Part shown: piece after piece, positions 11,404 through 33,656 of the stretch | How the letters are laid out: each line of letters starts with the position of its first letter | Position numbering within the stretch: position 1 is the stretch's first letter | From: Candidatus Kaiserbacteria bacterium RIFCSPLOWO2_01_FULL_54_20 | Lineage (GTDB): Bacteria; Patescibacteriota; Minisyncoccia; Phycocordibacterales; UBA2100 | Assembly: GCA_001783355.1 (NCBI GenBank) | Contig: MFMA01000027.1 | Coordinates: 12,000-48,880 of the forward strand | Direction: 5' to 3' | Length of the DNA stretch: 36,881 bases | The notes under the pieces: model-generated | The model's database searches: none | The model's input: only the letters and a program-made list of their open reading frames with translations | What the model was told of the DNA's origin: nothing | Position numbers and translations under genes: made by a program

Positions 11404-11426
11404 TCAAAGTTAGAAAAGGTTTCAAC

Positions 11427-13363: not shown

Positions 13364-13420
13364 AGGAGGTCACGTTTTTCTTTGAATAAGTCGAGCTTTT
13401 GTGCTATACCGAACGGCAAT

Positions 13421-14428: not shown

Positions 14429-14431
14429 GCT

Positions 14432-15463: not shown

Positions 15464-15467
15464 CGGT

Positions 15468-16769
15468 ATGAAGAGAAAAAAGGCGCACACCTCGGAGTCG
15501 AAGCTTGCGCTCCGCGGGGGTACGCCGGTCCTCAAGCAGCCGTATCCACCCGTCTACACGGTAGGGAAGCGGGAGATCGTAGAGGCCATTAAGGTTCTGA
15601 AGGAGGGGCCGCTCTCCGATTTCCTCGGTGTTGCAGGAGAATATTTTTTGGGGGGGAAACGCGTGCGTTCGCTGGAACATGCGTTCACGAAAAAATTCAA
15701 GGTGAAGCACGCAGTCTCATTCAACTCCGCGACGACGGCGCTCCACGGCGCGATAGTCACGCTCGGCATCGGGCCGGGGGACGAAGTCATTCTGCCTCCG
15801 TACACGATGTCGGCGTCGGCAATGGCGGTCCTCATGAACGGGGCCGTGCCTGTCTTTGCGGACATTGACGAGATGACCTTCTGCATCGATGTCGAGTCTG
15901 CTCGTACACGCATCACCAAACATACGAAAGCTATTATGGCGGTGAACTTGTTCGGCCAAGCGGCCGACTTTGAACCGCTCCTTGCGCTCGCGAGAGAGCA
16001 CAACATCAAGATCATCGAGGACAACGCGCAGGCACCCGCCGCGAAATGGCGCGGAAGGTACACGGGAACCATCGGGGATATCGGCGTATTTAGTTTCAAT
16101 TTTCACAAGACTATGCAATCGGGCGAGGGTGGAGTGCTTGTAACGAACAACGACGGCTACGCCCTTCGCGCACAACTGTGCCGCAATCATGGGGAGTCGG
16201 TCGTCGACGGCATGTCCGCGTACGACGGCGGGCCCGTTTTCGGAAGTAATTACCGGATGACGGAACTGACTGCCGCGATAGCGGAAGTACAGCTGTCCCG
16301 TCTTGATTTTCTCAATGCAAAGAATCAGGCGCTCGTGCGGTATCTATCAAAACAACTCTCCGCAATTCCGGGACTCACACTTCCGTATGTGGCATCCGGA
16401 AACAAGCACGTCTATTTTGCGTACGTCATAAAAGTGGATGAAAAGAAGCTGGGCATTTCGCGCGACCGTCTCGTAGAGGCGATGCGGGCGGAAGGATTTC
16501 CGATGTCGCGCGGCTATCAGAAGCCGCTCTATCTGTACAAGCTGTTTCAGGAGCAGCAGGCATTCAACAATACGCATTTTCCTTTCAAGAGCGAGGGGTA
16601 CGACGGCGCTCCGGATTACTCAAAAGGCATCTGTCCCGTTGCCGAGCGACTGTATGAAAAAGAATTAACAATGACGCAGATCTGTCAACATCCGCGGACG
16701 AAGAAACACATCGATCTCTTTGTGCAGGCGCTTAAAAAAGTGCTCGCGCATAAAAACGAACTGCAATGA
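15468..16769 (+). CDS. DegT/DnrJ/EryC1/StrS-family PLP aminotransferase (second copy, not the PseC type)
   Basis: 433 aa. FNSATTALH and FSFNFHKTMQSGEGGVLVTNN (PLP Lys) motifs. Confidence 0.85.
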   Translation: MKRKKAHTSESKLALRGGTPVLKQPYPPVYTVGKREIVEAIKVLKEGPLSDFLGVAGEYFLGGKRVRSLEHAFTKKFKVKHAVSFNSATTALHGAIVTLGIGPGDEVILPPYTMSASAMAVLMNGAVPVFADIDEMTFCIDVESARTRITKHTKAIMAVNLFGQAADFEPLLALAREHNIKIIEDNAQAPAAKWRGRYTGTIGDIGVFSFNFHKTMQSGEGGVLVTNNDGYALRAQLCRNHGESVVDGMSAYDGGPVFGSNYRMTELTAAIAEVQLSRLDFLNAKNQALVRYLSKQLSAIPGLTLPYVASGNKHVYFAYVIKVDEKKLGISRDRLVEAMRAEGFPMSRGYQKPLYLYKLFQEQQAFNNTHFPFKSEGYDGAPDYSKGICPVAERLYEKELTMTQICQHPRTKKHIDLFVQALKKVLAHKNELQ

Positions 16770-16830
16770 ATCCCGCTCGTTCAGTCCGGTCGGTATGCAT
16801 CGCTGCTATTACCAACGTAAAAAGGGCGGG

Positions 16831-17823
16831 ATGAAAGTCCTTTTCAGTGCCAACGATGCGGGCGGCGCGAATGCAATTGCGCCCGTTATTGCCTCTCTCG
16901 CTGGAAAAGGCGCAGAGCTCCACGGAGCGCTGAGCGGTCCGGCGCAAGATATTTTTGCCGCATCCGGCATACCGTTTACCGCCGGATTCTCCGCTTCGCC
17001 AGAGATATTTGTCGCCGGAACGAGCGCGGGGGACACGCCCGATAAGCGCATCATGCGCGAGCTTACGGGGACGCCGAGCCTGTACGTGCTTGATTTCTGG
17101 CTTAATTACTGGCAGAGATTTTCAACAACAGGAAAAAAAGATTTTGCGTACCTTCCGACACGCATCTGTGTGATGGATGAGATTGCAAAAGGGGAAATGA
17201 TTGCTGAAGGGTTCCCACCAGAGCGGCTCATTGTTACAGGCAATCCGCATTTCGATCACTTTGCCGATGCAATCGAGCGCGCAGACGAAGAGGCCGGGCG
17301 AATATTGTTCATTTCACAGCCGCTCCGCGATATCGCTCGCATGCAGGGGTATTCGGGCGCCGCGTACGATGAGTACGCGTCGCTCAGTGACGTCGTGCAA
17401 GCGCTCGAATCAGTGCCGGAACAATTCTACGTATCGATACGTTTGCATCCGAAAGAGTCGGACGAAAAGTACGCAGCATACATAGGGTCGCGCGTGCGCT
17501 GGGCTCCGGAATCCACCATTGAGGGGGCCATTTCGAGATCGGGACTCGTCGTCGGCATGTCGTCTCCGGTATTGATGCAGGCCGCGGCGGCCGGCAAACG
17601 CGTAGTAAGTTACGAGCCGGGGCTTGCGGGTGCCGACAGCTTGGTGAGCAACCGTTGCGGCGTGACGCGGCGATTGGACACTCCCGCCGGGCTTGCGGCG
17701 GAATTCAGCGACTATGCCGCCGGCAAGCCGTCGCCCACCACGGAAGACTTCAGGAAATTCTGGCCGCAGGGAGCTACGGAGCGCGTAGTTGCCGAAGTGT
17801 ATGCACTTGCGGTGAAAAAGTGA
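16831..17823 (+). CDS. Rossmann/GT-B-like protein of unknown function. It occupies the slot where a PseG-type nucleotide-sugar hydrolase would be expected.
   Basis: Trimmed to the ATG at 16831 (MKVLFSANDAGGAN...) with AAAGGG upstream. VTGNPHFD and RLHPKE motifs are reminiscent of the epimerase_2/GT-B folds. No confident family call. Confidence 0.35.
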   Translation: MKVLFSANDAGGANAIAPVIASLAGKGAELHGALSGPAQDIFAASGIPFTAGFSASPEIFVAGTSAGDTPDKRIMRELTGTPSLYVLDFWLNYWQRFSTTGKKDFAYLPTRICVMDEIAKGEMIAEGFPPERLIVTGNPHFDHFADAIERADEEAGRILFISQPLRDIARMQGYSGAAYDEYASLSDVVQALESVPEQFYVSIRLHPKESDEKYAAYIGSRVRWAPESTIEGAISRSGLVVGMSSPVLMQAAAAGKRVVSYEPGLAGADSLVSNRCGVTRRLDTPAGLAAEFSDYAAGKPSPTTEDFRKFWPQGATERVVAEVYALAVKK

Positions 17824-17836
17824 TACAAGTTACCCT

Positions 17837-18982
17837 ATGAAGACGATTCCTTATTCAACACAAGACATCAATGAGGCCGACATCAGGGCGGTGACGCGCG
17901 TTCTGCGTTCGCGCTGGCTCACTCAGGGACCCGCAGTTGAACGCTTCGAGAATGCGGTCGCGAAGAAAGTCGGTGCGAAGTTTGCGGTCGCGTTTAATTC
18001 CGGAACCGCGGCGCTTCACGCAGCCTACTTTGCTGCAGGGGTAAAGCAGGGAAATGAGGTAATCGTACCCGCTCTCACGTTTGCGGCCACGGCAAATGCC
18101 GCGCTCTATCTTGGCGCCACTCCCGTCTTCGCGGACTCTGATATGCATACGGGGAATATGAGCGTCGCCGACGCGTGCAAAAAGATAACCAACAGAACAA
18201 AAGCGATTGTGCCGGTGGATTACGGCGGCAGGCCGGCAGATTTGCGCGAGTTCCGTGCGCTTGCAAAGAAGCACAAGCTGGTCCTTATTGAAGATGCCGC
18301 GCAGGCGCTCGGCGCCACGTACCGGGGAAAGCCAGTCGGTACGCAGGCCGACATGACCATGTTCAGTTTCCATCCGGTGAAATCAATTACTACCGGAGAG
18401 GGCGGTGCCATCGTGACCGATAACAAGAAGTACAAAGATCTACTGAAGCTGTTTCGCAGCCATGGAATCAGCAAGGATGCGGGCACGTTCATCGTAAAGA
18501 GGGGACGCGGTGCGTGGTATCAGGAGATGCAGGTGCTTGGATTCAATTACCGCATGCAGGAAATGTCCGCCGCTCTCGGGGAAAGTCAGTTGAAGCGCCT
18601 AGATTCTTTTATAGCCAAGCGTTGCATTGCGGCACAGCGCTACGGAAAATTACTCAAGGATATTCCCGGACTTGTCCTGCCTCCTGACGAGCGACCTCAA
18701 GAGCAGTCGGCGTGGCACCTGTATCCGTTACGGCTCATACCCGCCATGGTGCATCGCCGCGACGAAATTCTTGCCAAGCTCCGCACAGCGGGCATCGGCG
18801 CGCAGGTTCATCATGTGCCGGTCCACCTGCATCTGTTTTACGAAAACTTGGGTTATAAAAAGGGACTCTGCCCCGACGCGGAAGCTTTTGTGAATTCAGA
18901 AATATCAATCCCGCTGTTTCCCGCCATAACTGCAAAACAGCAGGTATATATAGCTGAAGCCTTGCGGAAAATAATCGGTTAA
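17837..18982 (+). CDS. pseC: UDP-4-amino-4,6-dideoxy-N-acetyl-beta-L-altrosamine transaminase (PseC-type DegT aminotransferase)
   Basis: 381 aa. N-terminal IPYSTQDINEADIRAVTRVLRSRWLTQGPAVERFE and FSFHPVKSITTGEGGAIVTDN motifs are typical of PseC. Confidence 0.8.
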   Translation: MKTIPYSTQDINEADIRAVTRVLRSRWLTQGPAVERFENAVAKKVGAKFAVAFNSGTAALHAAYFAAGVKQGNEVIVPALTFAATANAALYLGATPVFADSDMHTGNMSVADACKKITNRTKAIVPVDYGGRPADLREFRALAKKHKLVLIEDAAQALGATYRGKPVGTQADMTMFSFHPVKSITTGEGGAIVTDNKKYKDLLKLFRSHGISKDAGTFIVKRGRGAWYQEMQVLGFNYRMQEMSAALGESQLKRLDSFIAKRCIAAQRYGKLLKDIPGLVLPPDERPQEQSAWHLYPLRLIPAMVHRRDEILAKLRTAGIGAQVHHVPVHLHLFYENLGYKKGLCPDAEAFVNSEISIPLFPAITAKQQVYIAEALRKIIG

Positions 18983-18989
18983 GAACAGT

Positions 18990-19601
18990 ATGAAAGCCCC
19001 GGATGCAATCGTCGTACTCTCAGGCGGCATTAAGCAAATCGCTGGCCGCTGGGTGAGTACTGACTTTACCGACCATGATGATAGGCAGGGGGCTCCTGGC
19101 GCTTCACTGAGGGTTGCGGCTGCCACGATACTCAGCAAGCGATATCCTTCGGCTCGGATCATAGCGAGCGGAGGCGCGGGCTATGATGTACCGGAAGACG
19201 CTCCAAAAAATCGTCCGCTCTTGTGCGAAATATTGAAAGCGGAGCTTGTCGCTGCAGACGTCCCCGAGGAACGTATTGAGCTTGAGAACGCATCCAACAC
19301 AACGTATCAACAGCTGCAACAGCTGGAGATTCTTATCCGACACAGATCATTTCGCAGCGTTGCCATTATTTCAAGCCGCTGGCACCTGCCGCGGATCGAG
19401 ACCATGCTCAATGTAAAATTCTCGGCATTACGAGCGAGCGTCGGGCTTGTGTCCGCCGAGGAGATATTGATTGAGGCGGACCCGGCGCGTTGGGGGCCCA
19501 TGATCGCGAAAGCATACGCCAGCGCATTTATGGCAGAAAGAATGGCCAACGAGAATCGGGGCATTTCGCAGATAAAAAATGGCACATATCAATTTCGATA
19601 A
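18990..19601 (+). CDS. DUF218 / YdcF-family protein
   Basis: 203 aa. AIVVLSGG start, SNTTYQQL and ISSRWHLPR motifs are characteristic of DUF218. Confidence 0.65.
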   Translation: MKAPDAIVVLSGGIKQIAGRWVSTDFTDHDDRQGAPGASLRVAAATILSKRYPSARIIASGGAGYDVPEDAPKNRPLLCEILKAELVAADVPEERIELENASNTTYQQLQQLEILIRHRSFRSVAIISSRWHLPRIETMLNVKFSALRASVGLVSAEEILIEADPARWGPMIAKAYASAFMAERMANENRGISQIKNGTYQFR

Positions 19602-19622
19602 ATCTCAATTACACTTGACTCC

Positions 19623-20279
19623 ATGAGGAAACTGAAGATAAGCATTCTTAACGACAGCCCGCGCAGCTGGTTTGTACCTTACGGGCAGGAGCTCGTTCTG
19701 AAGCTGAGAGAGCGCGGTCACGAAGTGGCCAGGATAGAAAATACGCAGGAATTACCACGCGGCGACATCGCTTTTTTCCTCAGTTGCGAACAAATCATCG
19801 GCAAAGACGTGCGGGACCGTAACACGAACAATATCGTTATTCACGCGAGCGCCCTGCCGCAAGGAAAGGGATGGTCCCCGCTTGCCTGGCAGATCCTGGA
19901 GGGAAAAAATGAGATTACGCTTACGATGTTTGAAGCGGCAGACGACGTTGACGCAGGAGACGTATTCGCGACAGAAACGATTACATTTGATGGTCATGAA
20001 CTGATTGACGAAATGCGGCAAAAGGAAGGAGAAGCAATCATCAGTCTCGCGCTCCGATTCGTTGACGCATATCCGAATGTCACCAGTCGTCCGCAGGAGG
20101 GGAAAGAGAGTATATACCCCAAACGCGCACCGAAAGACAGCGAGCTTGACCCAAAAAAGCCGCTTACCGAACTGTTCAACCAGTTGCGAGTCGCCGATAA
20201 TGAACGGTATCCGGCGTTCTTTACCCATCGCGGGCACACCTATGTGCTGAAGATATTCAAGAAAGACAATGAAAAATAA
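19623..20279 (+). CDS. Formyltransferase-fold protein (Formyl_trans_N-like) with a non-canonical active-site motif
   Basis: 218 aa. VIHASALPQGKG...DDVDAGDV matches the H-x-S-L-L-P-x-x-R/K-G and Asp motifs. The Asn of the canonical N-x-H is replaced by Val (NNIVIH; His codon at 19842-19844). Confidence 0.6.
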   Translation: MRKLKISILNDSPRSWFVPYGQELVLKLRERGHEVARIENTQELPRGDIAFFLSCEQIIGKDVRDRNTNNIVIHASALPQGKGWSPLAWQILEGKNEITLTMFEAADDVDAGDVFATETITFDGHELIDEMRQKEGEAIISLALRFVDAYPNVTSRPQEGKESIYPKRAPKDSELDPKKPLTELFNQLRVADNERYPAFFTHRGHTYVLKIFKKDNEK

Positions 20280-21318
20280 AAGTATGAAAGTAAGCGGGCG
20301 CGCCGTAGGAGCGGGTCATCCGGCCCTCATCGTCGCCGAGCTCTCCGGCAACCACAACCATGATATAAAACGTGCCATAAAGATAATAGATGCCGCGGCC
20401 GAAGCGGGTGCCGATGCGATAAAACTTCAGACGTATACGCCGGATACACTCACTATTAAGTCCGCCACCAAGCCTTTTCGCGTAACGTGGAAAGGGAAGC
20501 GCCGCACCCTGTACGATTTATACGAGGAAGCCTACACACCGTGGGAGTGGCACAAGGAACTATTTGCGCACGCAAAAAAACGCGGCCTTATCTGTTTTTC
20601 CACCCCGTTTGATAATTCTGCCGTGGATTTTCTGGAGAAACTCGGACAACCGATATACAAAGTTGCCTCATTTGAGATCATCGATATCCCGCTCCTTGAG
20701 CGCATCGGCAAAACAAAAAAGCCGGTCATACTGTCGCGGGGCATGGCATCAGTAGAAGAAATTCGTTTAGCTCTGAAGACGTTGCGAAAGTTCGGAACCA
20801 AAGATATTGTCCTTCTGCACTGCATAAGTGCGTATCCTGCGCGCCCGAAAGACATGCACCTTTCCACCATTCCCGACATGCGCACGCGCTTCGGCGTTAG
20901 TGTCGGGCTTTCCGACCACACGCTCGGAATAGATGTCGCTATTGCCGCCGTTGCTCTCGGCGCCGTCATTATTGAAAAGCATCTCACGCTCCGACGCAAA
21001 GATGGCGGGCCTGATTCGAGTTTCTCCCTGGAACCGAACGAATTTGCAGAAATGGTGCGCGGGGTGCGAACGGTTGAGGATGCGCTCGGGCGACCCTCAT
21101 ATTCCGAGAGCACGTACGAAAAAAAGAATATTGTTTTTCGCAAATCTCTTTTCGTCGTGCGTGACATGAAGAAAGGGGAAACGTTCACGCCGGATAACGT
21201 ACGCTCCATTAGGCCCGGGAACGGACTCGCGCCCAAGTTCTACCGTTCAGTCGTAGGGAAACGTGCCGCTCGCGATATCTCCCGCGCGACCCCTTTGCAC
21301 AATGGTTTGATAGCGTAG
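20269..21318 (+). CDS. pseI: Pseudaminic acid synthase (NeuB family with C-terminal SAF domain)
   Basis: 349 aa. LIVAELSGNHNHD, ADAIKLQTYT and SDHTLG motifs, followed by a C-terminal SAF-like segment. An alternative ATG at 20284 avoids the 11-nt overlap with the upstream gene. Confidence 0.8.
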   Translation: MKNKSMKVSGRAVGAGHPALIVAELSGNHNHDIKRAIKIIDAAAEAGADAIKLQTYTPDTLTIKSATKPFRVTWKGKRRTLYDLYEEAYTPWEWHKELFAHAKKRGLICFSTPFDNSAVDFLEKLGQPIYKVASFEIIDIPLLERIGKTKKPVILSRGMASVEEIRLALKTLRKFGTKDIVLLHCISAYPARPKDMHLSTIPDMRTRFGVSVGLSDHTLGIDVAIAAVALGAVIIEKHLTLRRKDGGPDSSFSLEPNEFAEMVRGVRTVEDALGRPSYSESTYEKKNIVFRKSLFVVRDMKKGETFTPDNVRSIRPGNGLAPKFYRSVVGKRAARDISRATPLHNGLIA

Positions 21319-21331
21319 TATTGAAAATATC

Positions 21332-22021
21332 ATGAGCGATCATTCTGTACTCGTAGTTATTCCGGCCAAGGCGCGCTCTACGCGCATTCCGGGAAAGAAT
21401 CTGAAAGACTTGTGCGGCAAGCCGATGATGGCCTACATCATAGAAACGGCCAAAGGAGCGAAAGGTGTGGACCGCGTTGTTGTGACGACAGAATCCGAGG
21501 AGATTAAGAAGGTTGCCGAACGGTACGGTGCGGAAGTTCCGTTTCTCCGTCCGCCGGAACTCACCTCGGACACGGCGACTTCCCAAGAAGTGGTCTCGCA
21601 CGCGCTTTCCGCACTCAAAGCGCACGATGGGTACGACCCAGAGTACGTACTCTTGCTCTACCCAACATCGCCCCTACTCTCGCGCGAGCGGGTTGAGCAG
21701 GCCATCGCTCTCGCGATCGAGAAAGATGCTGATTCGGTGGTGAGCGGCTACTACGATAAGGGGCATTATTGGATAGAAGATAAAGGTGCGTGGAAAAGAC
21801 TGTACCCGGTGCACCCGGTCAATAGCCAGTACCAGGACCCGCTCTTCAAAGAGAACGGCGCGATATACATGACGCGCGCTTTGGCACTGCAGAAGCAAAA
21901 GCAATTGCTCGCCGATCGTGTAGAGGTGCTTCTGATGAATCCTGACGAGAATATTGACGTTGATTATCCGGAGGATTTCGCACGCGTTGAAGCTACCCTT
22001 CGCGATAGGCGCGGAACATAA
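21332..22021 (+). CDS. pseF: CMP-pseudaminic acid synthetase / acylneuraminate cytidylyltransferase family
   Basis: 229 aa. VIPAKARSTRIPGKNLKDLCGKPMMAY N-terminal motif of the CTP_transf_3 family. Directly follows pseI. Confidence 0.8.
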   Translation: MSDHSVLVVIPAKARSTRIPGKNLKDLCGKPMMAYIIETAKGAKGVDRVVVTTESEEIKKVAERYGAEVPFLRPPELTSDTATSQEVVSHALSALKAHDGYDPEYVLLLYPTSPLLSRERVEQAIALAIEKDADSVVSGYYDKGHYWIEDKGAWKRLYPVHPVNSQYQDPLFKENGAIYMTRALALQKQKQLLADRVEVLLMNPDENIDVDYPEDFARVEATLRDRRGT

Positions 22022-22148: not shown

Positions 22149-24062
22149 CTAGAAGCGCGGATCTATCGTTTTAAGCGCTTTCATTCCAGCTGCGAAGCCC
22201 TCACCGCCGAATTTATGTCCCTGCCAGATCTCCGGGAGTATCCAGTGTTTTGTACGAACGAGATACGCAAGAAGCATTTTAAAATCGATCGCACCATCGC
22301 CGATACGCAGCCCCTCGCCTCCCCAATTAGCGGCATCAGAAACGTGAATATACTTTGTAACGGGCAAGATCGTTTTGACGAAATCCTCGAACTTTTTGCC
22401 ATACCGATTGCAGTAAAGCGCGGCATGCGATGTGTCGAACACGATCCCGTACCCTGTCTTTTTTGAGAACTCAGCTATTTCTTCGGCGTCCATGAAATTG
22501 GCGTGATGCCACGTTCCGCCGAAATACCACGGACTTCCGGGCATATTCTCGACGAGAAGTTGAAGTCCCTCGTCATGGAGCTTCGACAGGGAATCAAGCA
22601 GGTTCGCATTTAGCTCCTTTTTGTGTTCTAGAAGCGGTCGTTCCATGTCCATTCCGCCAGGATGGATCACCACCTTGACTAAACCATCGCGATTCCGGAA
22701 ATTTTTCTTGAGGCGTCGTGCATGGTCGAGCGCCTTGTTAAAGAAAGCAACAGACCGCCTTCTTGTTTCCTTGTTCCTACTCGACAAGTCAAGCAGAAGG
22801 TCGCCGTCATACTCAGGCCCATGCACGACCAAGTCTCGATCATACGTGGTAGTACCGACACGATCGTGATGGATATCGCTATCACTGAGGTGGATCTCGA
22901 CAAAATCCGAATTTAGATGCAGGAGCGTGTCAATATCCGTCATCCGCCCCACGACGCCCCACTTGCGATTGAACGTGAGTTTCTCGATGTCTGACGGCGG
23001 CCTGGGGAGTCCTACGTCGGACTCGAGAATATAATCATCTTTCTTTATGTCGCGCGTGGTCACGGCGCTTCCAATGAAATAATCATACTTGATCGGTGTC
23101 GTGCCCTTACCGGGGCTTTTCACAGTGATATCTTTCGCACTCAAGATGCTGCCTTTTTTAATGGCCCGCGCAGCAACAAGAGATTTCGACAAATTTTCCC
23201 GGTTCAAAAACTCTCCACGAGAGGGATACCGTACAGGCTCTCCGATCCCTATCTCCGTAGCGCGTATTCCTCTGACAAGTTCTTTAAACTCATCAGGTTC
23301 TAGGCTGGCTTTGTGGTCAGGCCCCGGCAGTGTTCTATCGAGCGTTATGTGCTTTTCGATCACCCGGGCACCAAACGCAACCGCCGCGATAGAAATTGCG
23401 ATCCCGCTCTCGTGACCGGAGTATCCAACCGGACGTCCTCCGGATATCTCCTTGAGCCGCGGTAGGAATGCAAGATTAATGTCATAGTAGGGTGCCGGGT
23501 ACGTACTATTGCAGTGAAGGAACATGTAATTGGCTTTCTCTTTCTCAAGGAATTTAGCAACGTGCTCGATCTCCGAAACAAAAGACATGCCTGTCGATAT
23601 GAGCATTGGTTTTCTCATCCGGGCGACCTTTCTCAGAAGTGGAAGGTTGAACATGTCCGGAGAGCCGATCTTGAAGAACTGGACCCCAAGCTTGTTGAGA
23701 AAGCGCATACTCTTCTCATCCCAAGGCGTACATGCAAAACGTATGCCTTTCTTTTTTGCATACATCGCAAGCGACTTCATTTCGTTTTCGCTCAACTCGT
23801 TCTTTATGATGTGTTCAAGCAGATACTGCTGTGCATGTTCTTCACCCTGCGGGTTTCGGAGAACGTCACTTTTGTATACATCCTGCATTGAACGTTTCTG
23901 GAATTTTACGCAATCAGCGCCGGCATTCTTGGCCGCGTCGATAAGAGCACGCGCCATTTTTACATCACCTTGGTGAGCGAGACCCACCTCGGCAATAATG
24001 TAGGTCGGGTGCTTGTCGCCTATAAGGCGGCTACCAATACGAAATTCACGCACTTCACTCAT
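22149..24062 (-). CDS. Fusion protein: NeuB-like sialic-acid-type synthase plus SAF domain, fused to a xylose-isomerase-like TIM barrel (sugar phosphate isomerase/epimerase, AP_endonuc_2-like)
   Basis: ATG at 24062 (MSEVREFRIGS...). The track ORF starts at the GTG at 24077, overlapping the SDR stop by 7 nt. The N-terminal ~355 aa carry IIAEVGLAHQGD, CVKFQKR, SGHESG and a SAF segment. The C-terminal ~275 aa (nt ~22152-22976) have TIM-barrel isomerase-like motifs (VVIHPG, LLVENMPG, FDTSHA, HVSD). Confidence 0.8.
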   Translation of the reverse strand: MSEVREFRIGSRLIGDKHPTYIIAEVGLAHQGDVKMARALIDAAKNAGADCVKFQKRSMQDVYKSDVLRNPQGEEHAQQYLLEHIIKNELSENEMKSLAMYAKKKGIRFACTPWDEKSMRFLNKLGVQFFKIGSPDMFNLPLLRKVARMRKPMLISTGMSFVSEIEHVAKFLEKEKANYMFLHCNSTYPAPYYDINLAFLPRLKEISGGRPVGYSGHESGIAISIAAVAFGARVIEKHITLDRTLPGPDHKASLEPDEFKELVRGIRATEIGIGEPVRYPSRGEFLNRENLSKSLVAARAIKKGSILSAKDITVKSPGKGTTPIKYDYFIGSAVTTRDIKKDDYILESDVGLPRPPSDIEKLTFNRKWGVVGRMTDIDTLLHLNSDFVEIHLSDSDIHHDRVGTTTYDRDLVVHGPEYDGDLLLDLSSRNKETRRRSVAFFNKALDHARRLKKNFRNRDGLVKVVIHPGGMDMERPLLEHKKELNANLLDSLSKLHDEGLQLLVENMPGSPWYFGGTWHHANFMDAEEIAEFSKKTGYGIVFDTSHAALYCNRYGKKFEDFVKTILPVTKYIHVSDAANWGGEGLRIGDGAIDFKMLLAYLVRTKHWILPEIWQGHKFGGEGFAAGMKALKTIDPRF

Positions 24063-24070
24063 GCGCTTTT

Positions 24071-24853
24071 TTACCACGCCGTGAAGCCACCGTCAACGGT
24101 AACGATCGAACCAGTTGCGTAGGATGAGGCATCTGAAGCAAGAAAGATAACGATACCGGACGCCTCTTCAGGCTTTGCCATTCGTCCCAGGGGCGTCTTT
24201 TCGCTGTATCGTTTTACGAATTCGGGACTTTGGTCATTCTCAAAACCACCGAACACGATTGCGTTGACGCGGACCCCGTTCTTTCCCCAGAGCGTCGCCA
24301 GATATTTCGTGATGTTCAAGACGGCAGCCTTGCTCGCGCCGTACACGGCAGGCTTCTCGAAACCGGCGGGATATATGCGTTGGTCCGGCGCGACGACCCC
24401 GTAAATAGATGCAATATTGATGATAGATGCACCAGACCCCATAAGCGGATACAGAGTGCGACACACGAGCATGATGCCGGTTAGATTCACGCGGAGTTCC
24501 TTTTCCCACTTTTCAATCGGGTAGTTCTCGAACGTTATTCCATTGTTACCACCATCCTCCACCCGCGGGTTAAATGCCGCATTGTTGATAAGAACATCGA
24601 TCCCGGTGAACTTCTCCTTGATCTGATCCGCGGCCTCGTGTAATGCACTCTCGTCGGTAATGTCGCATTGAAAGTAAGTGGCATCGGCATTCGCTGCTGC
24701 GAGTCGGGCTTTCCCCTCTGTCGGCGAAAGGATGTCGAGTGCGATCACACTTGCTCCCTCGTTCACGAGTGCACGCGCGAGAGACAGCCCTAAAAAACCG
24801 CATGCTCCGGTGAGCGCAACCCTTTTTCCGCGTATGGAGATGGTCTGGTTCAT
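24071..24853 (-). CDS. Short-chain dehydrogenase/reductase (SDR)
   Basis: 260 aa. TGACGFLG (TGxxGxxG) and YGASKAAV (Y-x3-K) motifs. ATGA overlap with the upstream aminotransferase. Confidence 0.85.
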   Translation of the reverse strand: MNQTISIRGKRVALTGACGFLGLSLARALVNEGASVIALDILSPTEGKARLAAANADATYFQCDITDESALHEAADQIKEKFTGIDVLINNAAFNPRVEDGGNNGITFENYPIEKWEKELRVNLTGIMLVCRTLYPLMGSGASIINIASIYGVVAPDQRIYPAGFEKPAVYGASKAAVLNITKYLATLWGKNGVRVNAIVFGGFENDQSPEFVKRYSEKTPLGRMAKPEEASGIVIFLASDASSYATGSIVTVDGGFTAW

Positions 24854-26241: not shown

Positions 26242-27048
26242 CTATTTTGGCTCTTCTCTATACTGTGTATGGTCGACCGTTTTTAGTTCGGCGGCGCTTG
26301 ATCGATACCAATTAACCCCATTGTACCTCTCGTTGATCTTGGCGATCTCCGGTTTGTCCTTAAGCAATCGCAGGATATCATCTGTACCGAAATGTGGCTT
26401 ACCCTGAAGCTCTTCGTAAACACGCGAGATGAATTCCCAGTCTTCCGGATAATCGAGGGTCCACCGATGTGTCATGAACATATTGCCGCGTGGATTCTCG
26501 ACGTTGCCTATCCGAAACCGATTCGGTTGATCCCAGATGAAAGGGAACGTATGTTCACGTTCGTGCGGTTTTTTCGCTTCGCGCCACGCGACCTCCATAA
26601 CCCCGAATGTGCATCCTTCGACATCCAGTCCGTCTGGGAACGTCGGTGGATGGTAGTTGCTTACGTAATCGTATGTGTGCGGATCGTCGGTCCACAGGCC
26701 CAACACTTCATCGATGACCGCCGGGTCGGTCAGAGGACAGTCCGAGCCGATCTTAACGACAAAATCGGCCCCGAATATTTTCGCCGCCTGGTAGTGCCTG
26801 TCGAGAAGATCCAATTCGCTTCCTCGAAAGCATGGAACCGAATATTTCTTGCACAGCGTGTCGATCGCGTCATCTGTGGAACGTGTTGTCGTGATGACGA
26901 CGACGTTGTCGGGTAGCTTCGCCCGTTTGATGCGACCTATTTGGTGTACCAGGATCGGTTTATCCAGCACTTCTTTGAGTACTTTGCCTGGCAAGCGCGA
27001 TGAGCCTGTTCGCGCTTGAACGCATACCACGATAGCAGGCCTGTTCAT
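26242..27048 (-). CDS. SpsF-like cytidylyltransferase (CTP_transf_3 family)
   Basis: 268 aa. VCVQARTGSSRLPGKVLKEVLDKPIL N-terminal motif and the SpsF-type C-terminal extension (WTLDYPEDWEF). ATGA overlap with the upstream methyltransferase. Confidence 0.8.
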   Translation of the reverse strand: MNRPAIVVCVQARTGSSRLPGKVLKEVLDKPILVHQIGRIKRAKLPDNVVVITTTRSTDDAIDTLCKKYSVPCFRGSELDLLDRHYQAAKIFGADFVVKIGSDCPLTDPAVIDEVLGLWTDDPHTYDYVSNYHPPTFPDGLDVEGCTFGVMEVAWREAKKPHEREHTFPFIWDQPNRFRIGNVENPRGNMFMTHRWTLDYPEDWEFISRVYEELQGKPHFGTDDILRLLKDKPEIAKINERYNGVNWYRSSAAELKTVDHTQYREEPK

Positions 27049-28007
27049 GATCTCTTTTTTCCCACGAACACGAGGCTCTCACCGAGCCCGAGTTTTCCTA
27101 CCAGATCGCGATATTCGCGGTCAGTGCGTTCGATGAACGCATTCAATGCTTTTTCGGCCGATGTTTTCGCGTGGGGAACGAGCTGAGCGGTCATGCCTAG
27201 GTCAAAATTGCTCTGCGGCTTTTGCGCGGTTATCCAATGGATGTGGTTCATGAGCGTATAGCGCTGAACGGTTCGTATCTCACCTGCGAATCCGGCCTTA
27301 GACAATGCGCGTCGTAGCGTCGCTTTTGAGAAATATGAAAGATGAGGCTCACGGTAGTAGAAAGTTTCGTACCCTTTTGCGCCATACGCCACCAAAAGCA
27401 CGTCATCGATGTTCGGAAGCTCAAGATAAAGATGCCCGTTCGGTTTCAAGTGCTTTCCAAGATTTCGAAGAAACGTTATTGGGTCCTCAACATGTTCCAG
27501 GACTTGAAGTGCCGTAATGACGTCGAACGGTCCTTCCGGGATATGTAGAGTTTCAACGGGCTTGTCGTACACCGGAAAATCCAAGTTTTTTCGTACAAAC
27601 GCGACCTCCTCACTCGAAAGCTCAACTCCGACTCTTGTATTCACCCTGCCCTTGAGTGAGTGTAGGAAATGTCCGGTTGAACATCCGACATCTAGGATTT
27701 TTGTCCCGGACTTGAGCAGCGTGCCCATTGATTCGTGAATGAGGTGTTGATAGGGAAGATACATCTCGAATATCTCCTTTGGGGAACTTTTCTTAGCGAG
27801 GTTCGGCCCATGATGCTTCCTGTATTCTTTTCCCGCATAGAACTTCTTGCTGATGTGTGGTCGCTCGAGGTATACAAATCCGCAGTTGACGCACCTCAAA
27901 ACATTGCGTTTAATGTTGAAGCGGAGCCTGTCACGAACCAATATGGCGCGATTTCCGTGGCACACATAACACGTTGCTGCCAGCATCTTCTTTCTCATGA
28001 GACACAT
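27045..28007 (-). CDS. Class I SAM-dependent methyltransferase with an N-terminal Cys4 zinc-ribbon
   Basis: 320 aa. CYVCHG...CVNCGF ribbon, then ILDVGCSTGHFL motif I. The start at 28007 is favoured by CATAAT 6 nt upstream. Alternative ATGs lie at 27998 and 27986. Confidence 0.75.
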   Translation of the reverse strand: MCLMRKKMLAATCYVCHGNRAILVRDRLRFNIKRNVLRCVNCGFVYLERPHISKKFYAGKEYRKHHGPNLAKKSSPKEIFEMYLPYQHLIHESMGTLLKSGTKILDVGCSTGHFLHSLKGRVNTRVGVELSSEEVAFVRKNLDFPVYDKPVETLHIPEGPFDVITALQVLEHVEDPITFLRNLGKHLKPNGHLYLELPNIDDVLLVAYGAKGYETFYYREPHLSYFSKATLRRALSKAGFAGEIRTVQRYTLMNHIHWITAQKPQSNFDLGMTAQLVPHAKTSAEKALNAFIERTDREYRDLVGKLGLGESLVFVGKKRS

Positions 28008-29534: not shown

Positions 29535-30569
29535 TCAAGAACGACGCCTGGTCGCTATCATTTCCAGATCTGCCCTTGTCATCATACGCACAAGTTCAGT
29601 GAAGGATAGTTCCGGTTTCCAGTTAAGCTCCTTTCGGGCCTTTGAGCTGTCTCCGCGAAGATCGTGGACCTCACGAGGCCGGTAGAATTTTTTGTCTATC
29701 TTTACAATGACATTCCCCGATCTATCCTTCCCAACCTCCTTCGTGCCCTTGCCACTCCACGACATCGTCATATCAAGTTCTGCCGCGGCAGCCTCAACAA
29801 AGTCTCGTACGGAGTGGGAAACCCCTGTCGCAATCACATAATCCCCCGGCTTTTTTTGCTGAAGCATCATGTGCATCGCTCGTACATAGTCACCCGCAAA
29901 TCCCCAATCTCGCCTCGCGTTGAGGTTTCCGAGTATGAGGCATTGCTGGAGACCCAATTTAATTTTGGCAAGTGAAATCGTTATTTTTCTCGTAACAAAA
30001 TGCTCGCCGCGCCTGGGGCTCTCATGATTGAAAAGGATTCCTGAGCAAATGAACATTCCGTACTTTTTTCTATAGCCCCTGACGTAATCTTCGTATGCCA
30101 TTAATTTTGCGACTCCATACGGCGATACAGGCGAGAATTTTGAGGTCTCATTTTGCGGTGGCCGCGTGTCCCCGAACATTTCCGACGTCGAAGCGTGGTA
30201 TATCTTTGCCTTGGGAACGATCGTCATCGCCTCGATCAGCAAGCGTCCGAGCCCGAAGTAGTTTACCTCCATGGTTTCCTCAGGGCATTTAAATGATATA
30301 CCAACGTCGGATTGCGCGGCGAGGTTATATATCTCATCTGGCTTAGACTCATTGAGCGCTCGCGCTATGGATGCGCTGTCGCGAAGATTCCCGTAGATCA
30401 ACCGGACATTGGGATGATGCGCTACGGTTTCGATACGCATCATGGGGTCAAGAGACGTCCGCCGGACAAGCCCGTATACTTCATAATTCTTCTTGAGCAG
30501 ATACTCTGCCAGGTAAGAACCGTCTTGGCCGGTTATGCCGGTGATCAGTGCGCGTTTCCTTTTTTTCAT
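29535..30569 (-). CDS. gmd: GDP-mannose 4,6-dehydratase
   Basis: 344 aa. ALITGITGQDGSYLAEYLL, STSEMFG, SPYGVAKL and LFNHESPRRG motifs are diagnostic. Its stop abuts the stop of the convergent gene (TGATCA at 29532-29537). Confidence 0.9.
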   Translation of the reverse strand: MKKRKRALITGITGQDGSYLAEYLLKKNYEVYGLVRRTSLDPMMRIETVAHHPNVRLIYGNLRDSASIARALNESKPDEIYNLAAQSDVGISFKCPEETMEVNYFGLGRLLIEAMTIVPKAKIYHASTSEMFGDTRPPQNETSKFSPVSPYGVAKLMAYEDYVRGYRKKYGMFICSGILFNHESPRRGEHFVTRKITISLAKIKLGLQQCLILGNLNARRDWGFAGDYVRAMHMMLQQKKPGDYVIATGVSHSVRDFVEAAAAELDMTMSWSGKGTKEVGKDRSGNVIVKIDKKFYRPREVHDLRGDSSKARKELNWKPELSFTELVRMMTRADLEMIATRRRS

Positions 30570-30638: not shown

Positions 30639-31436
30639 ATGACTCGCAAGAAAGCAGTATCAGTCGCAGTGTCGGGAGGGTTTGACCCGCTTCATATCGG
30701 GCATGTACGGATGTTCAGGGCCGCGCGAAAACTGGGCGATGCGCTTGTTGTCATCATGAACAACGACCACTGGCTCCGCGCGAAGAAAGGATTTATCTTC
30801 ATGCCGCAGAAGGAGCGCGCCGAGATAATCCGGCACCTGCCATTCGTTGATAAGGTCGTCTTCACCGACCACAAAAAAGGCGATACCGACAAAAGCGTCT
30901 CCCGCACGCTCGCGAAGGTACGACCTGATATTTTTGCGAATGGCGGTGACCGGTTCTCGAAGAATGTTCCTGAAGTCGCTGTGTGCAAAAAGCTCGGAAT
31001 AAAAATGGTCTTCAATGTGGGAAAGGGCGGCAAAGTGCAATCTTCTTCGTGGATGATCAATGCCTCGCGGAAGCCCGCATCGGAGACCGTGCGACCATGG
31101 GGTTCATACTTTGGATGGGACAGCGGGAAGGGATGGAATCTGAAAACGGTCTACGTAAAGCCTAGGAAACGATTAAGCCTCCAATATCATAAGGGGCGCA
31201 GCGAGCACTGGATATTGGTAGGGGGCGATGCGCTCGCAACGATCAAAAATCCTTCGGGTTTCATGGAAACGTACCCTCTGCGACTTGGCGAATCGTTCCA
31301 CATAGGGAAGGGAATGGTGCATCGCTTGGAGTCAAAAAAAGGTGGGGTCATTGTTGAGGTTGCACTAGGGCACTTTGACGAAAACGACATAGTCCGTTTG
31401 CAGGATGACTTTGGGCGCTCCGGAAAAAGGTCGTGA
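30639..31436 (+). CDS. Fusion of a HIGH-motif cytidylyl/adenylyltransferase-like domain (CTP_transf_like) with a type II phosphomannose-isomerase-like cupin domain
   Basis: 265 aa. N-terminal SGGFDPLHIGHVRMF (H-x-G-H). From aa ~150 (nt ~31086): RPWGSY...LSLQYHKGRSEHWILVGG...MVHRLE cupin motifs. Confidence 0.7.
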   Translation: MTRKKAVSVAVSGGFDPLHIGHVRMFRAARKLGDALVVIMNNDHWLRAKKGFIFMPQKERAEIIRHLPFVDKVVFTDHKKGDTDKSVSRTLAKVRPDIFANGGDRFSKNVPEVAVCKKLGIKMVFNVGKGGKVQSSSWMINASRKPASETVRPWGSYFGWDSGKGWNLKTVYVKPRKRLSLQYHKGRSEHWILVGGDALATIKNPSGFMETYPLRLGESFHIGKGMVHRLESKKGGVIVEVALGHFDENDIVRLQDDFGRSGKRS

Positions 31437-31451
31437 TATGATATTCGGAAT

Positions 31452-33656
31452 ATGGCTATAGAAAAAACCCTGCGTTTTATTGTCCTGGGCGGTATTTTCG
31501 CACTTCCGTTTATCGTCTTTCTCGTCGCGCAATCGCTCTTCTTCCCGTTCATCACCGGAAAGAACTTCACGTTTCGCATCGTCGTCGAGATCATCACCGG
31601 CGCGTATCTTGCGCTCGCGCTCGTGAACCCAAGCTTTAGGCCAAAGCGCTCGTGGCTCCTCGGCCTCTTCGCGCTCTTCGTGCTTGTGGTGGCGATGGCC
31701 GATGCTCTCGGAGTAGCGCCGTTCAAGAGCTTCTGGTCGAACTACGAGCGTATGGACGGGTGGGTGACGCTGGTGCACCTATTCTTCTACTTCCTCGTTG
31801 CCTCAAGCGTCTTGAACACGGAGAGGCTATGGCGCGCCTTTTGGCACATTTCTCTATCCGTATCCGCGGTAGTGGGCGTGTACGGGTTTCTGCAACTTGC
31901 CGGCATCGCGAGCCTCAACCCGGGATTTTCCTCGCTGTCCCGCATCGACGCCACGTTCGGAAATCCGATATACCTCGCCGCGTACATGCTTTTCAATATC
32001 GGCATCGCGGCGATGCTTTGGGCGCGCGCGTGGCAGGAGACCACACGGGGCGAGCGTTTCTGGTTGTCGACATTCTATGGGGGCGTGATCGCGCTCGACG
32101 CGCTTATTTTGTTCATGACAGGAACAAGGGGCGCGATGCTGGGGCTCATCGGCGGAGCGCTGCTCGCGGCCCTTCTCATGGCGTTCTCTTCCCGAACGAT
32201 GCGCCGAACCGCGCTCGCCGGCGTCGTAGCCGTTCTAGTTCTTGCCGGCGGTTTCTGGTTGGTGCGCGGGGAGGCGTGGGTCCAAAAAGTCCCGTTCCTG
32301 CAGCGTCTCGCGACGATATCGCTTGAGGACAACACGACCAAGGCGCGCTTCATGAACTGGGGCATGGCGTGGCAAGGAGTAAAGGAGCGGCCCATTCTTG
32401 GGTGGGGACAGGAGAATTATGCGATCGTCTTCGACAAGTACTACGACCCGCGCATGTATGCGCAGGAGCAGTGGTTCGATCGCGTGCACAATATCGTCTT
32501 CGACTGGCTCGTTGCGGCAGGTTTCGTCGGTCTCTTCTCATACCTTTCGATCATAGGTGCGGCTCTCCTATTGCTGTGGCGCAAGAGAGAGGCGAATGCC
32601 TTCTCCGTGGCCGAGAGCAGTATCCTTACCGGTCTCCTTGCCGCGTATTTCTTCCATAATCTTTTTGTGTTCGACAACATAACAAGTTACGTGCTTTTTG
32701 TGTCGGTCCTTGCATACATCGCGTGGCGCGGGAGCACCGGTGCGGCAACTCTCCCGATGCCGAGCGTCTCGCAAAAGGCCGTCGTGGCCGTCGCGATAGC
32801 GGCCGCCGTCCTCGTTTGGGGAGTCGCATGGTTCGTGAATGCAAAAGCGCTTAGCGCGAATCGTGCCCTGCTTAACGGACTTGCGCAGCAAGAGGGCGGT
32901 TTGCAGAAGAATCTGGAGTACTTCAAAGAATCTATTTCGTACGGGAGCCTCGGCACACAGGAAGCCCGCGAGCAGCTTGCACAAGCGGCCGCGCAGATAG
33001 TCCGGAGCGGAAATGTTCCCGCCGAAGTGAAGCAAAGTTTTCTTATCACAGCCGCTGAAGAAATGGCCAAGATGTCGGCGGAATCGCCGCTCGACGCTCG
33101 TTTCCCGCTGTTCCTCGGGGCTCTCCTCGGAGCCTCCGGAAACTTCGACCAAGCGATACCGGTACTGAAAAGAGCGCACGAGCTTAGTCCGGGAAAACAA
33201 ACCATCCTTTTTGAGCTCGCTTCAAATATGTTCGCGAGCGGTGATGTTCGCGGAGCTCTGGCCGCATATAAGCAGGCCTACGAACTCGAGCCCGGTTTCA
33301 ACGATGCGCGCATCGGGTATGCGTCTGCCGCAATACGGGCAAAAGAAGACGCGCTGGCCGACGAACTTCTCGCGCCGCTCCTTGAAAAAGGAGGAGCGGC
33401 AGATCCGAGGATCGCCGCCGCCTACGTTTCTCGCAACCGATATGACAAGGTAGCCAAGATCTGGGAAGCGCATATCAAGCTGAACCCGAATGATGCTCAA
33501 GCATACTTCACGCTTGCGGCCGCGTACTATGGAATGGGCAGTTCGGCACAAGCCATCTCTACGTTGGAAAAGATCGCCACTATCGCGCCGGGGGCAAAAG
33601 AGCAAGCGGACGCGCTCATACAGCAGATACGGAGCGGGACGGCGAAGTTGCAGTAG
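31452..33656 (+). CDS. Wzy_C / O-antigen-ligase-like polytopic membrane protein with a C-terminal TPR domain
   Basis: 734 aa. The N-terminal ~470 aa hold at least 10 TM segments, with TGTRGAMLGLIGG and HNIVFDWLVAAGFVG motifs of the O-antigen ligase/polymerase family. The C-terminal ~250 aa (nt ~32889-33653) are TPR-like repeats. Confidence 0.8.
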   Translation: MAIEKTLRFIVLGGIFALPFIVFLVAQSLFFPFITGKNFTFRIVVEIITGAYLALALVNPSFRPKRSWLLGLFALFVLVVAMADALGVAPFKSFWSNYERMDGWVTLVHLFFYFLVASSVLNTERLWRAFWHISLSVSAVVGVYGFLQLAGIASLNPGFSSLSRIDATFGNPIYLAAYMLFNIGIAAMLWARAWQETTRGERFWLSTFYGGVIALDALILFMTGTRGAMLGLIGGALLAALLMAFSSRTMRRTALAGVVAVLVLAGGFWLVRGEAWVQKVPFLQRLATISLEDNTTKARFMNWGMAWQGVKERPILGWGQENYAIVFDKYYDPRMYAQEQWFDRVHNIVFDWLVAAGFVGLFSYLSIIGAALLLLWRKREANAFSVAESSILTGLLAAYFFHNLFVFDNITSYVLFVSVLAYIAWRGSTGAATLPMPSVSQKAVVAVAIAAAVLVWGVAWFVNAKALSANRALLNGLAQQEGGLQKNLEYFKESISYGSLGTQEAREQLAQAAAQIVRSGNVPAEVKQSFLITAAEEMAKMSAESPLDARFPLFLGALLGASGNFDQAIPVLKRAHELSPGKQTILFELASNMFASGDVRGALAAYKQAYELEPGFNDARIGYASAAIRAKEDALADELLAPLLEKGGAADPRIAAAYVSRNRYDKVAKIWEAHIKLNPNDAQAYFTLAAAYYGMGSSAQAISTLEKIATIAPGAKEQADALIQQIRSGTAKLQ

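Follow-up and report, generated by a model that had tools for sequence, protein, structure and literature searches.

A NeuB-SAF-TIM fusion protein of Candidatus Kaiserbacteria: a NANS-like synthase joined to a possible phosphatase barrel

The fused gene and its family

A 36,881-nucleotide (nt) stretch of the genome of Candidatus Kaiserbacteria bacterium RIFCSPLOWO2_01_FULL_54_20 (assembly GCA_001783355.1, contig MFMA01000027.1, positions 12,000 to 48,880), referred to below as the window, carries on its reverse strand a gene in which a NeuB-SAF module continues in frame into a xylose-isomerase-like triosephosphate isomerase (TIM) barrel (Table 1). An earlier note on this DNA, prepared from the sequence alone, had described an uninterrupted open reading frame (ORF) of 637–642 residues at this site, and the frame is indeed unbroken. 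Counted from a GTG at position 24077, which overlaps the stop codon of the upstream gene for a short-chain dehydrogenase/reductase (SDR), it encodes 642 residues; counted from the ATG at codon 6 (position 24062), it encodes the 637-residue product of the public gene calls. The ATG is the more likely start. Downstream of the gene lies a convergent gap of 127 nt, in which a scan detected neither a promoter nor a terminator.

Table 1. Coordinates of the fused gene, its domains and its neighbours, in window positions
Feature	Position (nt)	Strand	Remarks and basis
Whole fused gene, NeuB-SAF-TIM	22149..24077	-	stop codon 22149-22151; ORF and Pfam
NeuB (PEP-aldose condensing) domain, residues 45-280	23238..23945	-	Pfam
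SAF/antifreeze-like domain, residues 299-355	23013..23183	-	Pfam
Variable inter-domain linker, residues 356-372	22962..23012	-	family alignment
Xylose-isomerase-like TIM barrel, residues 373-642	22152..22961	-	Pfam and AlphaFold model
Invariant residues at TIM strand ends			R378, D381, E394, H396, H419, H472, E510, D548, H551, D581, E588, E616, H621
Classical SDR dehydrogenase, 260 residues	24071..24853	-	upstream operon partner; Pfam
Class-III (glutamate-1-semialdehyde aminomutase-like) aminotransferase, 450 residues	24850..26202	-	operon partner
CTP_transf_3 cytidylyltransferase, 268 residues	26242..27048	-	presumed CMP-ulosonate synthetase
S-adenosylmethionine-dependent methyltransferase, 239 residues in public calls	27045..27764	-	mechanical ORF reaches 28007
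Capsule_synth (KpsS/KpsC-like) protein, 574 residues	27810..29534	+	divergently transcribed

The domain content agrees with that proposed earlier, a complete NeuB-SAF module followed by a C-terminal TIM barrel. Matches above the Pfam gathering thresholds were obtained for NeuB (PF03102; E = 3e-81, 272.9 bits against a cut-off of 22.1) and SAF (PF08666; E = 2e-13, 50.9 bits against 21), and AP_endonuc_2 (PF01261) matched residues 413–637 (E = 1e-23, 84.8 bits against 31.1). The full-length AlphaFold model, built from a 39-sequence alignment, reached a predicted local distance difference test (pLDDT) score of 90.6 and a predicted template modelling (pTM) score of 0.77, and contains a complete eight-stranded barrel that begins near residue 373 after a short linker; modelled separately with AlphaFold2, the C-terminal domain reached a pLDDT of 94.9. 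The junction between the halves, previously placed at 22974–23015, falls at this linker. Across the 39 diverse family members, mean identity to the query is 58% in NeuB, 56% in SAF and 57% in TIM, against 20% in the roughly 16-residue linker, and the equal divergence of the three domains indicates that both halves are under equal purifying selection. The best PDB matches to the full-length model cover the NeuB-SAF half alone, and no solved structure among these matches spans both halves. The contrast drawn earlier with the PseI-like paralogue of the window (349 residues, 20269–21318) also stands: that protein ends after its SAF domain.

We considered whether the fusion might be an assembly or frameshift artefact, or the decaying read-through of two genes, and rejected this explanation, which has virtually no chance of being correct. 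At least four independent samples contributed the 14 contigs that encode the identical 637-residue protein, its neighbours unchanged, and the NeuB-SAF-AP_endonuc_2 layout recurs in over 120 database clusters whose identity goes as low as 44%. For the locus analyses, a profile of the TIM domain alone was run against species-representative genomes and 80 loci were kept; NeuB and TIM share one frame in 75 of them, and the remaining five comprise two cut by contig ends and three that are split with NeuB immediately upstream. The equal conservation of the domains and the confident full-length model speak for a genuine protein as well. What can be cited for an artefact is that these rare split versions exist and that about 16% of the TIM representatives look stand-alone. 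The split forms, which may be genuine separations, pseudogenes or errors of sequencing, comprise two adjacent ORFs in a Woesearchaeota locus (L047, 6914–8960), NeuB-SAF and TIM parted by one in-frame stop in a Saccharibacteria metagenome-assembled genome (MAG; L082, 2526–4422) and a frameshift in Rivularia (L054, 6568–8831). Because the rare split genes stay adjacent and keep their order, we regard the two halves as functionally coupled.

The family is very widespread, and the window gene is an ordinary member of it. The TIM-only profile matches at least 560 species-level genomes of bacteria and archaea, the nearest named genome being a groundwater Candidatus Kaiserbacteria MAG that is 79% identical in the TIM domain and has the same accessory genes. 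NeuB-SAF-TIM proteins also occur in Nitrospirota, Planctomycetota, cyanobacteria, SAR11, Verrucomicrobia, Leptospira, Aeromonas, Rhizobium/Ensifer, Bacillota (Orenia, Thalassobacillus), one haloarchaeon and DPANN archaea; an Ensifer megaplasmid was the only match in a plasmid collection. The family formed by the TIM domain itself is narrow, with 542 matches (E ≤ 1e-3) among 1.84 billion representatives at 50% identity. NeuB sequence is likewise present in 95 of the best 150 matches, and 24 seem to be complete domains standing alone. The family TIM motifs ENMPxxPW and PEIWQGH are present in the window protein.

Larger forms of the protein exist. A second size class of about 750 residues has an extra N-terminal pair of CBS domains. 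In a Paceibacterota MAG (protein P0091; L009, 10001–12709), CTP_transf_3, NeuB, SAF and TIM follow one another in one frame of 902 residues, and in a Nitrospirae MAG (L026, 1777–4689) NeuB-SAF-TIM continues into a C-terminal SDR of the GDP-mannose 4,6-dehydratase type within a 971-residue stop-to-stop frame. These two proteins act as Rosetta-stone links of the synthase with a cytidylyltransferase and an extended SDR.

Relationship of the synthase half to animal NANS

The NeuB-SAF fold of the fused protein is shared with Neisseria meningitidis NeuB (PDB: 1XUZ; template modelling (TM) score 0.88) and Campylobacter jejuni PseI (PDB: 8H2C). The protein keeps the metal residues H222 and H243 and the phosphoenolpyruvate (PEP) ligands, which are invariant in the family. 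The residues E25, K53, Q55, K129, S132, S154, Y186, S213, H215, H236 and D247 of N. meningitidis NeuB, which we take from the 1XUZ literature to be its metal and PEP residues, all have counterparts in the query that are invariant in the 39 members. Two other active-site positions of the meningococcal enzyme are substituted. At the position of Glu134, 39 of 39 family members have Asp (Asp141 in the query), and at that of Arg314, a residue of the SAF domain on which catalysis depends, there are 35 Ser, three Gly and one Cys but never Arg (Ser321 in the query, nt 23115–23117). Both substitutions are common to human NANS, and the PseI paralogue of the window retains Glu and Arg at the two positions. 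The fused protein of Leptospira borgpetersenii (L063), which falls in the same clade as the window protein, has Ser at the Arg314 position.

Assignment of the fused protein as an ordinary bacterial NeuB, PseI or LegI was rejected. Its scores lie below the equivalog cut-offs for NeuB (TIGR03569; 338.4 bits against 399.65) and PseI (TIGR03586; 220.6 bits against 340.25), it lacks Arg314 and, unlike those enzymes, it has a TIM domain in addition and shows no association with hydrolysing enzymes of the NeuC/PseG type. NeuC-type hydrolysing 2-epimerases feed free sugars to canonical NeuB and LegI; such an enzyme lies within 3 kb of the fused gene in one of 56 well-flanked loci.

Similarity to animal NANS is higher throughout. 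Compared with human N-acetylneuraminate-9-phosphate synthase (NANS; NP_061819.2, by exact sequence look-up), the protein shows 41% identity and 256 bits, against 34% identity and 190 bits for N. meningitidis NeuB. The NeuB domains of the fused family score higher against NANS than against the meningococcal enzyme in 79 of 79 cases (means of 210 and 161 bits), whereas four of five genuine stand-alone paralogues do not. In a neighbour-joining tree, NANS and the fused family are split from the PseI/LegI-type paralogues and N. meningitidis NeuB in 100 of 100 bootstraps, and in 91 of 100 the synthases of fused and split genes form one monophyletic group, with animal NANS as their sister. These comparisons point to a NANS-like synthase half that would use phospho-sugars.

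Metal site and possible function of the TIM barrel

The xylose-isomerase-like fold class of the TIM half is confirmed, and no characterised subfamily is close. In PDB sequence searches, the only clear relative was MJ1311 of Methanocaldococcus jannaschii (PDB: 3WQO, 'D-tagatose 3-epimerase-like protein'; E = 6e-5 with a single sequence, 9e-17 with a profile). Weaker sequence matches were MbnB (E = 0.004–0.015), a putative sugar isomerase and endonuclease IV (Endo IV), and no epimerase was matched in these searches. Foldseek returned 175 PDB matches at E ≤ 0.001, and the top 50 listed all belong to this fold class, in the order MJ1311, ketose 3-epimerases, UlaE, MbnB and Endo IV, with TM-scores of about 0.6–0.68 and identities of 11–23%. 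MJ1311 (Foldseek E = 7e-13, TM-score 0.63–0.67, 23% identity) has the motifs HaP, HPG, ENMP, FDxxHA and H.xD in common with the TIM half, but it is a stand-alone protein and keeps a D-x-H pair where the fusion family has G-E-G. The structural study of MJ1311 reportedly found all nine metal ligands of Endo IV conserved in it, a point on which no argument here relies.

The C-terminal ends of all eight barrel strands hold invariant residues, namely R378/D381, E394/H396, H419, H472, E510, D548/H551, H578/D581 and E616/H621, with H578 nearly invariant. Structure prediction and inspection of metal residues, both proposed in the earlier note, find metal ligands kept in both halves. Endo IV (Escherichia coli Nfo, PDB: 1QTW) has the same fold, and its trinuclear site has nine ligands (H69, H109, E145, D179, H182, H216, D229, H231 and E261). 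In a profile alignment with the 1QTW-verified sequence, H109, E145, D179, H182 and H216 correspond to the invariant or near-invariant H472, E510, D548, H551 and H578, and by their order H419 and E616 are plausible counterparts of H69 and E261, so that the nine-ligand set is matched in part, by five aligned residues and two plausible ones. Overall similarity to Endo IV is low, there is no DNA-repair context at the fused gene, and the fused protein is certainly not a DNA endonuclease. Ketose 3-epimerases have a four-ligand E-D-H-E metal site, whose positional counterparts in the TIM half are E510, D548, H578 and E616. The His-rich ligand set of the TIM half exceeds this site and, judged from its residues, suggests a binuclear, hydrolase-type centre.

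Comparable fusions have been reported in Leptospira (2012) and Serratia (2022), and the novelty that the earlier note implied for the gene was overstated. Ricaldi et al. (2012; PMC3438082) noted the Leptospira fusion, read its C-terminal domain as a phosphatase and deduced, with no biochemistry behind it, an animal-like route where the domain takes the phosphate off a 9-phosphorylated nonulosonic acid (NulO). The Leptospira interrogans protein (YP_002104 / NP_711794) resembles the window protein in joining a NulO synthase to this C-terminal 'phosphatase' domain. It differs in its N-terminal CBS pair (about 750 residues in all), which the window protein lacks, and in its partners, a DegT aminotransferase and an iron-containing alcohol dehydrogenase (Fe-ADH) in place of the class-III aminotransferase and SDR. 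For the sequence comparison, the L. borgpetersenii homologue was used in place of that of L. interrogans. We also asked whether PDB entry 6NCS, the 'sialic acid synthetase' of L. borgpetersenii, represents part of the fusion. It does not, since it scores only 140 bits against the fused Leptospira protein and so is another paralogue.

The KL1 and KL2 capsule loci of Serratia marcescens begin with neuA and a neuB that bears an extra COG1082 'sugar phosphate isomerase/epimerase' domain, and these are the sole sialic-acid genes of the capsule locus (Anderson et al. 2022, PMC9000132). Deletion of neuB lowered sialic acid about 4-fold and abolished the capsule, and neuB alone complemented the defect; the capsule sugar is ketodeoxynonulosonic acid (KDN) with about 5% N-acetylneuraminic acid (Neu5Ac), a dual specificity that the authors likened to that of human NANS (PMC9000132). 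The described domain layout (pfam03102 plus COG1082) and the cytidylyltransferase partner match those of the window protein. Serratia was absent from the best 120 matches of a search seeded with a gammaproteobacterial member, and we found no biochemical follow-up of the Leptospira or Serratia fusion in the literature. Fusions of this kind are thus already known, from Leptospira and, as judged by the architecture reported there, from Serratia, and the window gene is one more member.

The earlier note had suggested that the TIM half couples an isomerase or epimerase step to the synthase and generates its aldose. The coupling stands, given the in-frame fusion and the order kept by the split genes; the aldose-making role is left without specific evidence beyond the Pfam/COG name. 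Spelled out, the domain would act before the synthase as an isomerase or epimerase of a sugar or sugar phosphate, turning for example fructose 6-phosphate or glucose 6-phosphate into mannose 6-phosphate (Man-6-P) that is channelled to NeuB, and the phosphatase would be unlinked. Such a scheme fits the AP_endonuc_2 and COG1082 matches, the presence of the E-D-H-E counterparts and the place of the ketose 3-epimerases and of L-xylulose-5-phosphate 3-epimerase UlaE among the top Foldseek matches (highest TM-score 0.68), and it would allow the two genes of the module to work from a central metabolite without further supply. Yet the structural similarity to the ketose 3-epimerase/UlaE family (TM-score 0.60–0.68) is accompanied by just 11–16% identity to any characterised isomerase or epimerase, and the invariant H396, H419, H472, H551 and H621 lie outside the epimerase ligand set, two of them (H472 and H551) aligning to Endo IV ligands. 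Moreover, 3-epimerases interconvert ketoses and would yield no aldose for a NeuB-type enzyme; the activity would be redundant in Ensifer and Aeromonas, where ManC with a phosphomannose isomerase (PMI) domain adjoins the module; and with a NANS-like synthase the pathway would be left without a phosphatase. We consider this alternative unlikely.

Other functions proposed for the barrel are a nucleoside diphosphate-sugar phosphodiesterase, acting for example on GDP-mannose in a step like that of NeuC or LegG, a multinuclear-iron oxidase resembling MbnB/DUF692, and a non-catalytic scaffold or regulatory domain. The first is in line with the homology to the phosphodiester-cleaving Endo IV and with the adjacency of ManC, which serves GDP-mannose synthesis, in two contexts, but the affinity of the synthase to NANS points to 6-phosphate substrates and not to free sugars. 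The second draws on the appearance of MbnB in both the sequence and the structure searches (Foldseek E = 2e-9); these matches are weak and partial, and the Serratia product is plain KDN, which would not have to be oxidised or epimerised. Against a non-catalytic domain stand more than 30 invariant residues, the full strand-end His/Asp/Glu set among them. Taken together, these functions appear doubtful.

We give an even chance to the reading that the fused protein is a bifunctional nonulosonate-9-phosphate synthase/phosphatase. By homology, its NANS-type NeuB-SAF module would condense PEP with a hexose 6-phosphate, most likely Man-6-P and perhaps N-acetylmannosamine 6-phosphate, to a nonulosonate 9-phosphate such as KDN 9-phosphate (KDN-9-P). 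The His/Asp/Glu site of the TIM barrel, probably holding two metals, would then remove the 9-phosphate; this is the weakest link of the scheme, and here the barrel would take the place of the haloacid dehalogenase (HAD)-type phosphatases that serve in animals (NANP) and in Bacteroides (KDN-9-P phosphatase). Judging from gene context, the adjacent CTP_transf_3 protein would make the CMP-sugar. In the window, the SDR and the class-III aminotransferase may convert a hydroxyl into an amino group and the methyltransferase may add a methyl group, after which the KpsS/C-like transferase would add the sugar to a surface glycan.

The proposed order of condensation, dephosphorylation and CMP activation is that of animal NANS and NANP. 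The animal phosphatase is a separate HAD-fold enzyme, whereas the window candidate would be a fused metal-dependent TIM barrel of unrelated fold. Bacteroides thetaiotaomicron, too, reportedly uses a phosphate-dependent route from Man-6-P and PEP to KDN, in work attributed to Wang et al. in 2008; its KDN-9-P synthase and HAD KDN-9-P phosphatase (BT1713) are separate proteins, and the likeness is one of route.

A phosphatase step after condensation is favoured by the combination of a NANS-like synthase, Endo IV-type His ligands with kinship to MJ1311, and a module that has no other phosphatase: across nine contexts with annotation, neither the protein nor any neighbour is assigned a HAD Pfam family. 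The bifunctional model would account for the NANS affinity, the missing HAD phosphatase, the sufficiency of two genes, and the plain KDN with minor Neu5Ac in Serratia. We advance more tentatively, with the balance tilted slightly against it, the broader proposition in which the TIM domain is a previously unrecognised type of sugar-phosphate phosphatase on the Endo IV/MJ1311 barrel that replaces the HAD enzyme, the family is the closest prokaryotic sister of NANS and supplies, with one cytidylyltransferase, a two-gene route from Man-6-P to CMP-KDN in bacteria and archaea alike, and the window operon extends this route to an undescribed amino- and/or methyl-KDN derivative.

Several points weigh against the synthase/phosphatase interpretation. 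The Endo IV residues D229 and H231, which belong to its third metal site, are replaced in the family by an invariant G-E-G (G587, G589), and hhalign aligns Endo IV weakly, with a probability of 34% and E = 4e-4, over part of the domain only. Ketose 3-epimerases and UlaE reach TM-scores of 0.60–0.68 in Foldseek, compared with 0.59–0.62 for Endo IV; since the epimerases score at least as high, the fold alone does not favour a hydrolase. We know of no precedent for sugar-phosphate monoesterase activity in this fold. Dephosphorylation could be left to housekeeping phosphatases, an arrangement that would free the TIM domain for another role. On the synthase side, phospho-sugar use is deduced solely from relatedness to NANS, and the taxon sampling of the tree is small. 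Serratia NeuB is likened to the family by matching architecture only. Finally, ManC (with PMI and GDP-mannose pyrophosphorylase domains) directly upstream in Ensifer, and ManC with phosphomannomutase upstream in Aeromonas, speak for the model, but ManC/PMI as a family-wide neighbour was rejected, being present in only seven of 80 loci.

What the present analysis adds is scale (at least 560 species-level genomes, including the pathogens Leptospira and Aeromonas) and the sister relation to NANS, through which the NeuB-SAF-TIM family links prokaryotic and animal sialic-acid synthesis. If the TIM half is the missing phosphatase, it would represent a new phosphatase type on this fold, would explain how a two-gene cassette makes CMP-KDN and would bear on how the sialic-acid pathway of animals arose.

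Genes around the fused synthase

A CTP_transf_3 cytidylyltransferase is the constant partner of the fused synthase. Of the 80 loci, 63 have it in their flanks and 32 within 500 nt, and P0091 contains it as an in-frame fusion. The only recognisable adjoining genes of ulosonic-acid biosynthesis in Acaryochloris and Orenia are those for the cytidylyltransferase and the fused synthase. In Orenia marismortui (L005, 6812–20275), both lie in a flagellin/Maf glycosylation island together with three Maf-type (MptE-like) proteins, two proteins of the sulfatase/phosphodiesterase family and one DUF8042 protein, a setting which implies that Orenia flagellin may be decorated with the product sugar.

An identical block of four genes, encoding CBS-NeuB-SAF-TIM, a DegT aminotransferase, CTP_transf_3 and an Fe-ADH, was observed in L. 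borgpetersenii (L063, 6591–11831) and Sediminibacterium roseum (L095, 7001–12155), and is thus common to a spirochaete and a Bacteroidota species. In Shewanella, the Fe-ADH and aminotransferase pair KdnB/KdnA makes 8-amino-3,8-dideoxy-D-manno-octulosonic acid (Kdo8N). By analogy, the block suggests that an amino-nonulosonate may be formed through oxidation and transamination of a free hydroxyl. The window set of methyltransferase, CTP_transf_3, class-III aminotransferase, SDR and fused synthase is functionally analogous to this block. None of the accessory enzymes of the window reaches an NCBIfam equivalog cut-off; the best partial NCBIfam matches of the SDR are sugar-acid dehydrogenases (gluconate 5-dehydrogenase, KduD). 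The Serratia locus has neuA and neuB only. With the dehydrogenase, aminotransferase and methyltransferase that the window operon has in addition, its end product is probably a modified derivative of the sugar. A candidate for transferring the CMP-activated ulosonic acid is the divergently transcribed KpsS/C-like protein.

A separate nonulosonic-acid cluster (13382–22021, forward strand) is convergent with the fused gene, so that the window encodes two CMP-ulosonic-acid pathways side by side. This cluster encodes a PseB-like dehydratase, a GFO/IDH/MocA oxidoreductase, two DegT aminotransferases, a DUF218 protein, a formyltransferase-like protein, the canonical 349-residue PseI-like synthase and a PseF-like cytidylyltransferase, together with one 367-residue ORF that has no Pfam match. 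Besides the Capsule_synth protein near the fused gene, a second KpsS/KpsC-like protein is encoded at 9973–11403 (forward strand), which makes one for each ulosonic-acid pathway, and both are candidate ulosonic-acid transferases.

Other genes of the window also encode unusual domain combinations. A 265-residue protein (30639–31436, forward strand) joins a cytidylyl/adenylyl-transferase-like domain, similar to RfaE domain II, to a C-terminal mannose-6-phosphate isomerase cupin; it is adjoined by a GDP-mannose 4,6-dehydratase gene (29535–30569, reverse strand) and might be a putative supplier of Man-6-P. A 734-residue protein (31452–33656, forward strand) combines a Wzy_C/O-antigen-ligase domain with a long C-terminal array of tetratricopeptide repeats, and a similar protein is present in the Paceibacterota locus that encodes P0091. 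Within the glycan cluster, a DUF4910/DUF2172/Peptidase_M28 aminopeptidase-like protein is encoded at 11400–12713 (forward strand), with a GNAT acetyltransferase gene downstream.

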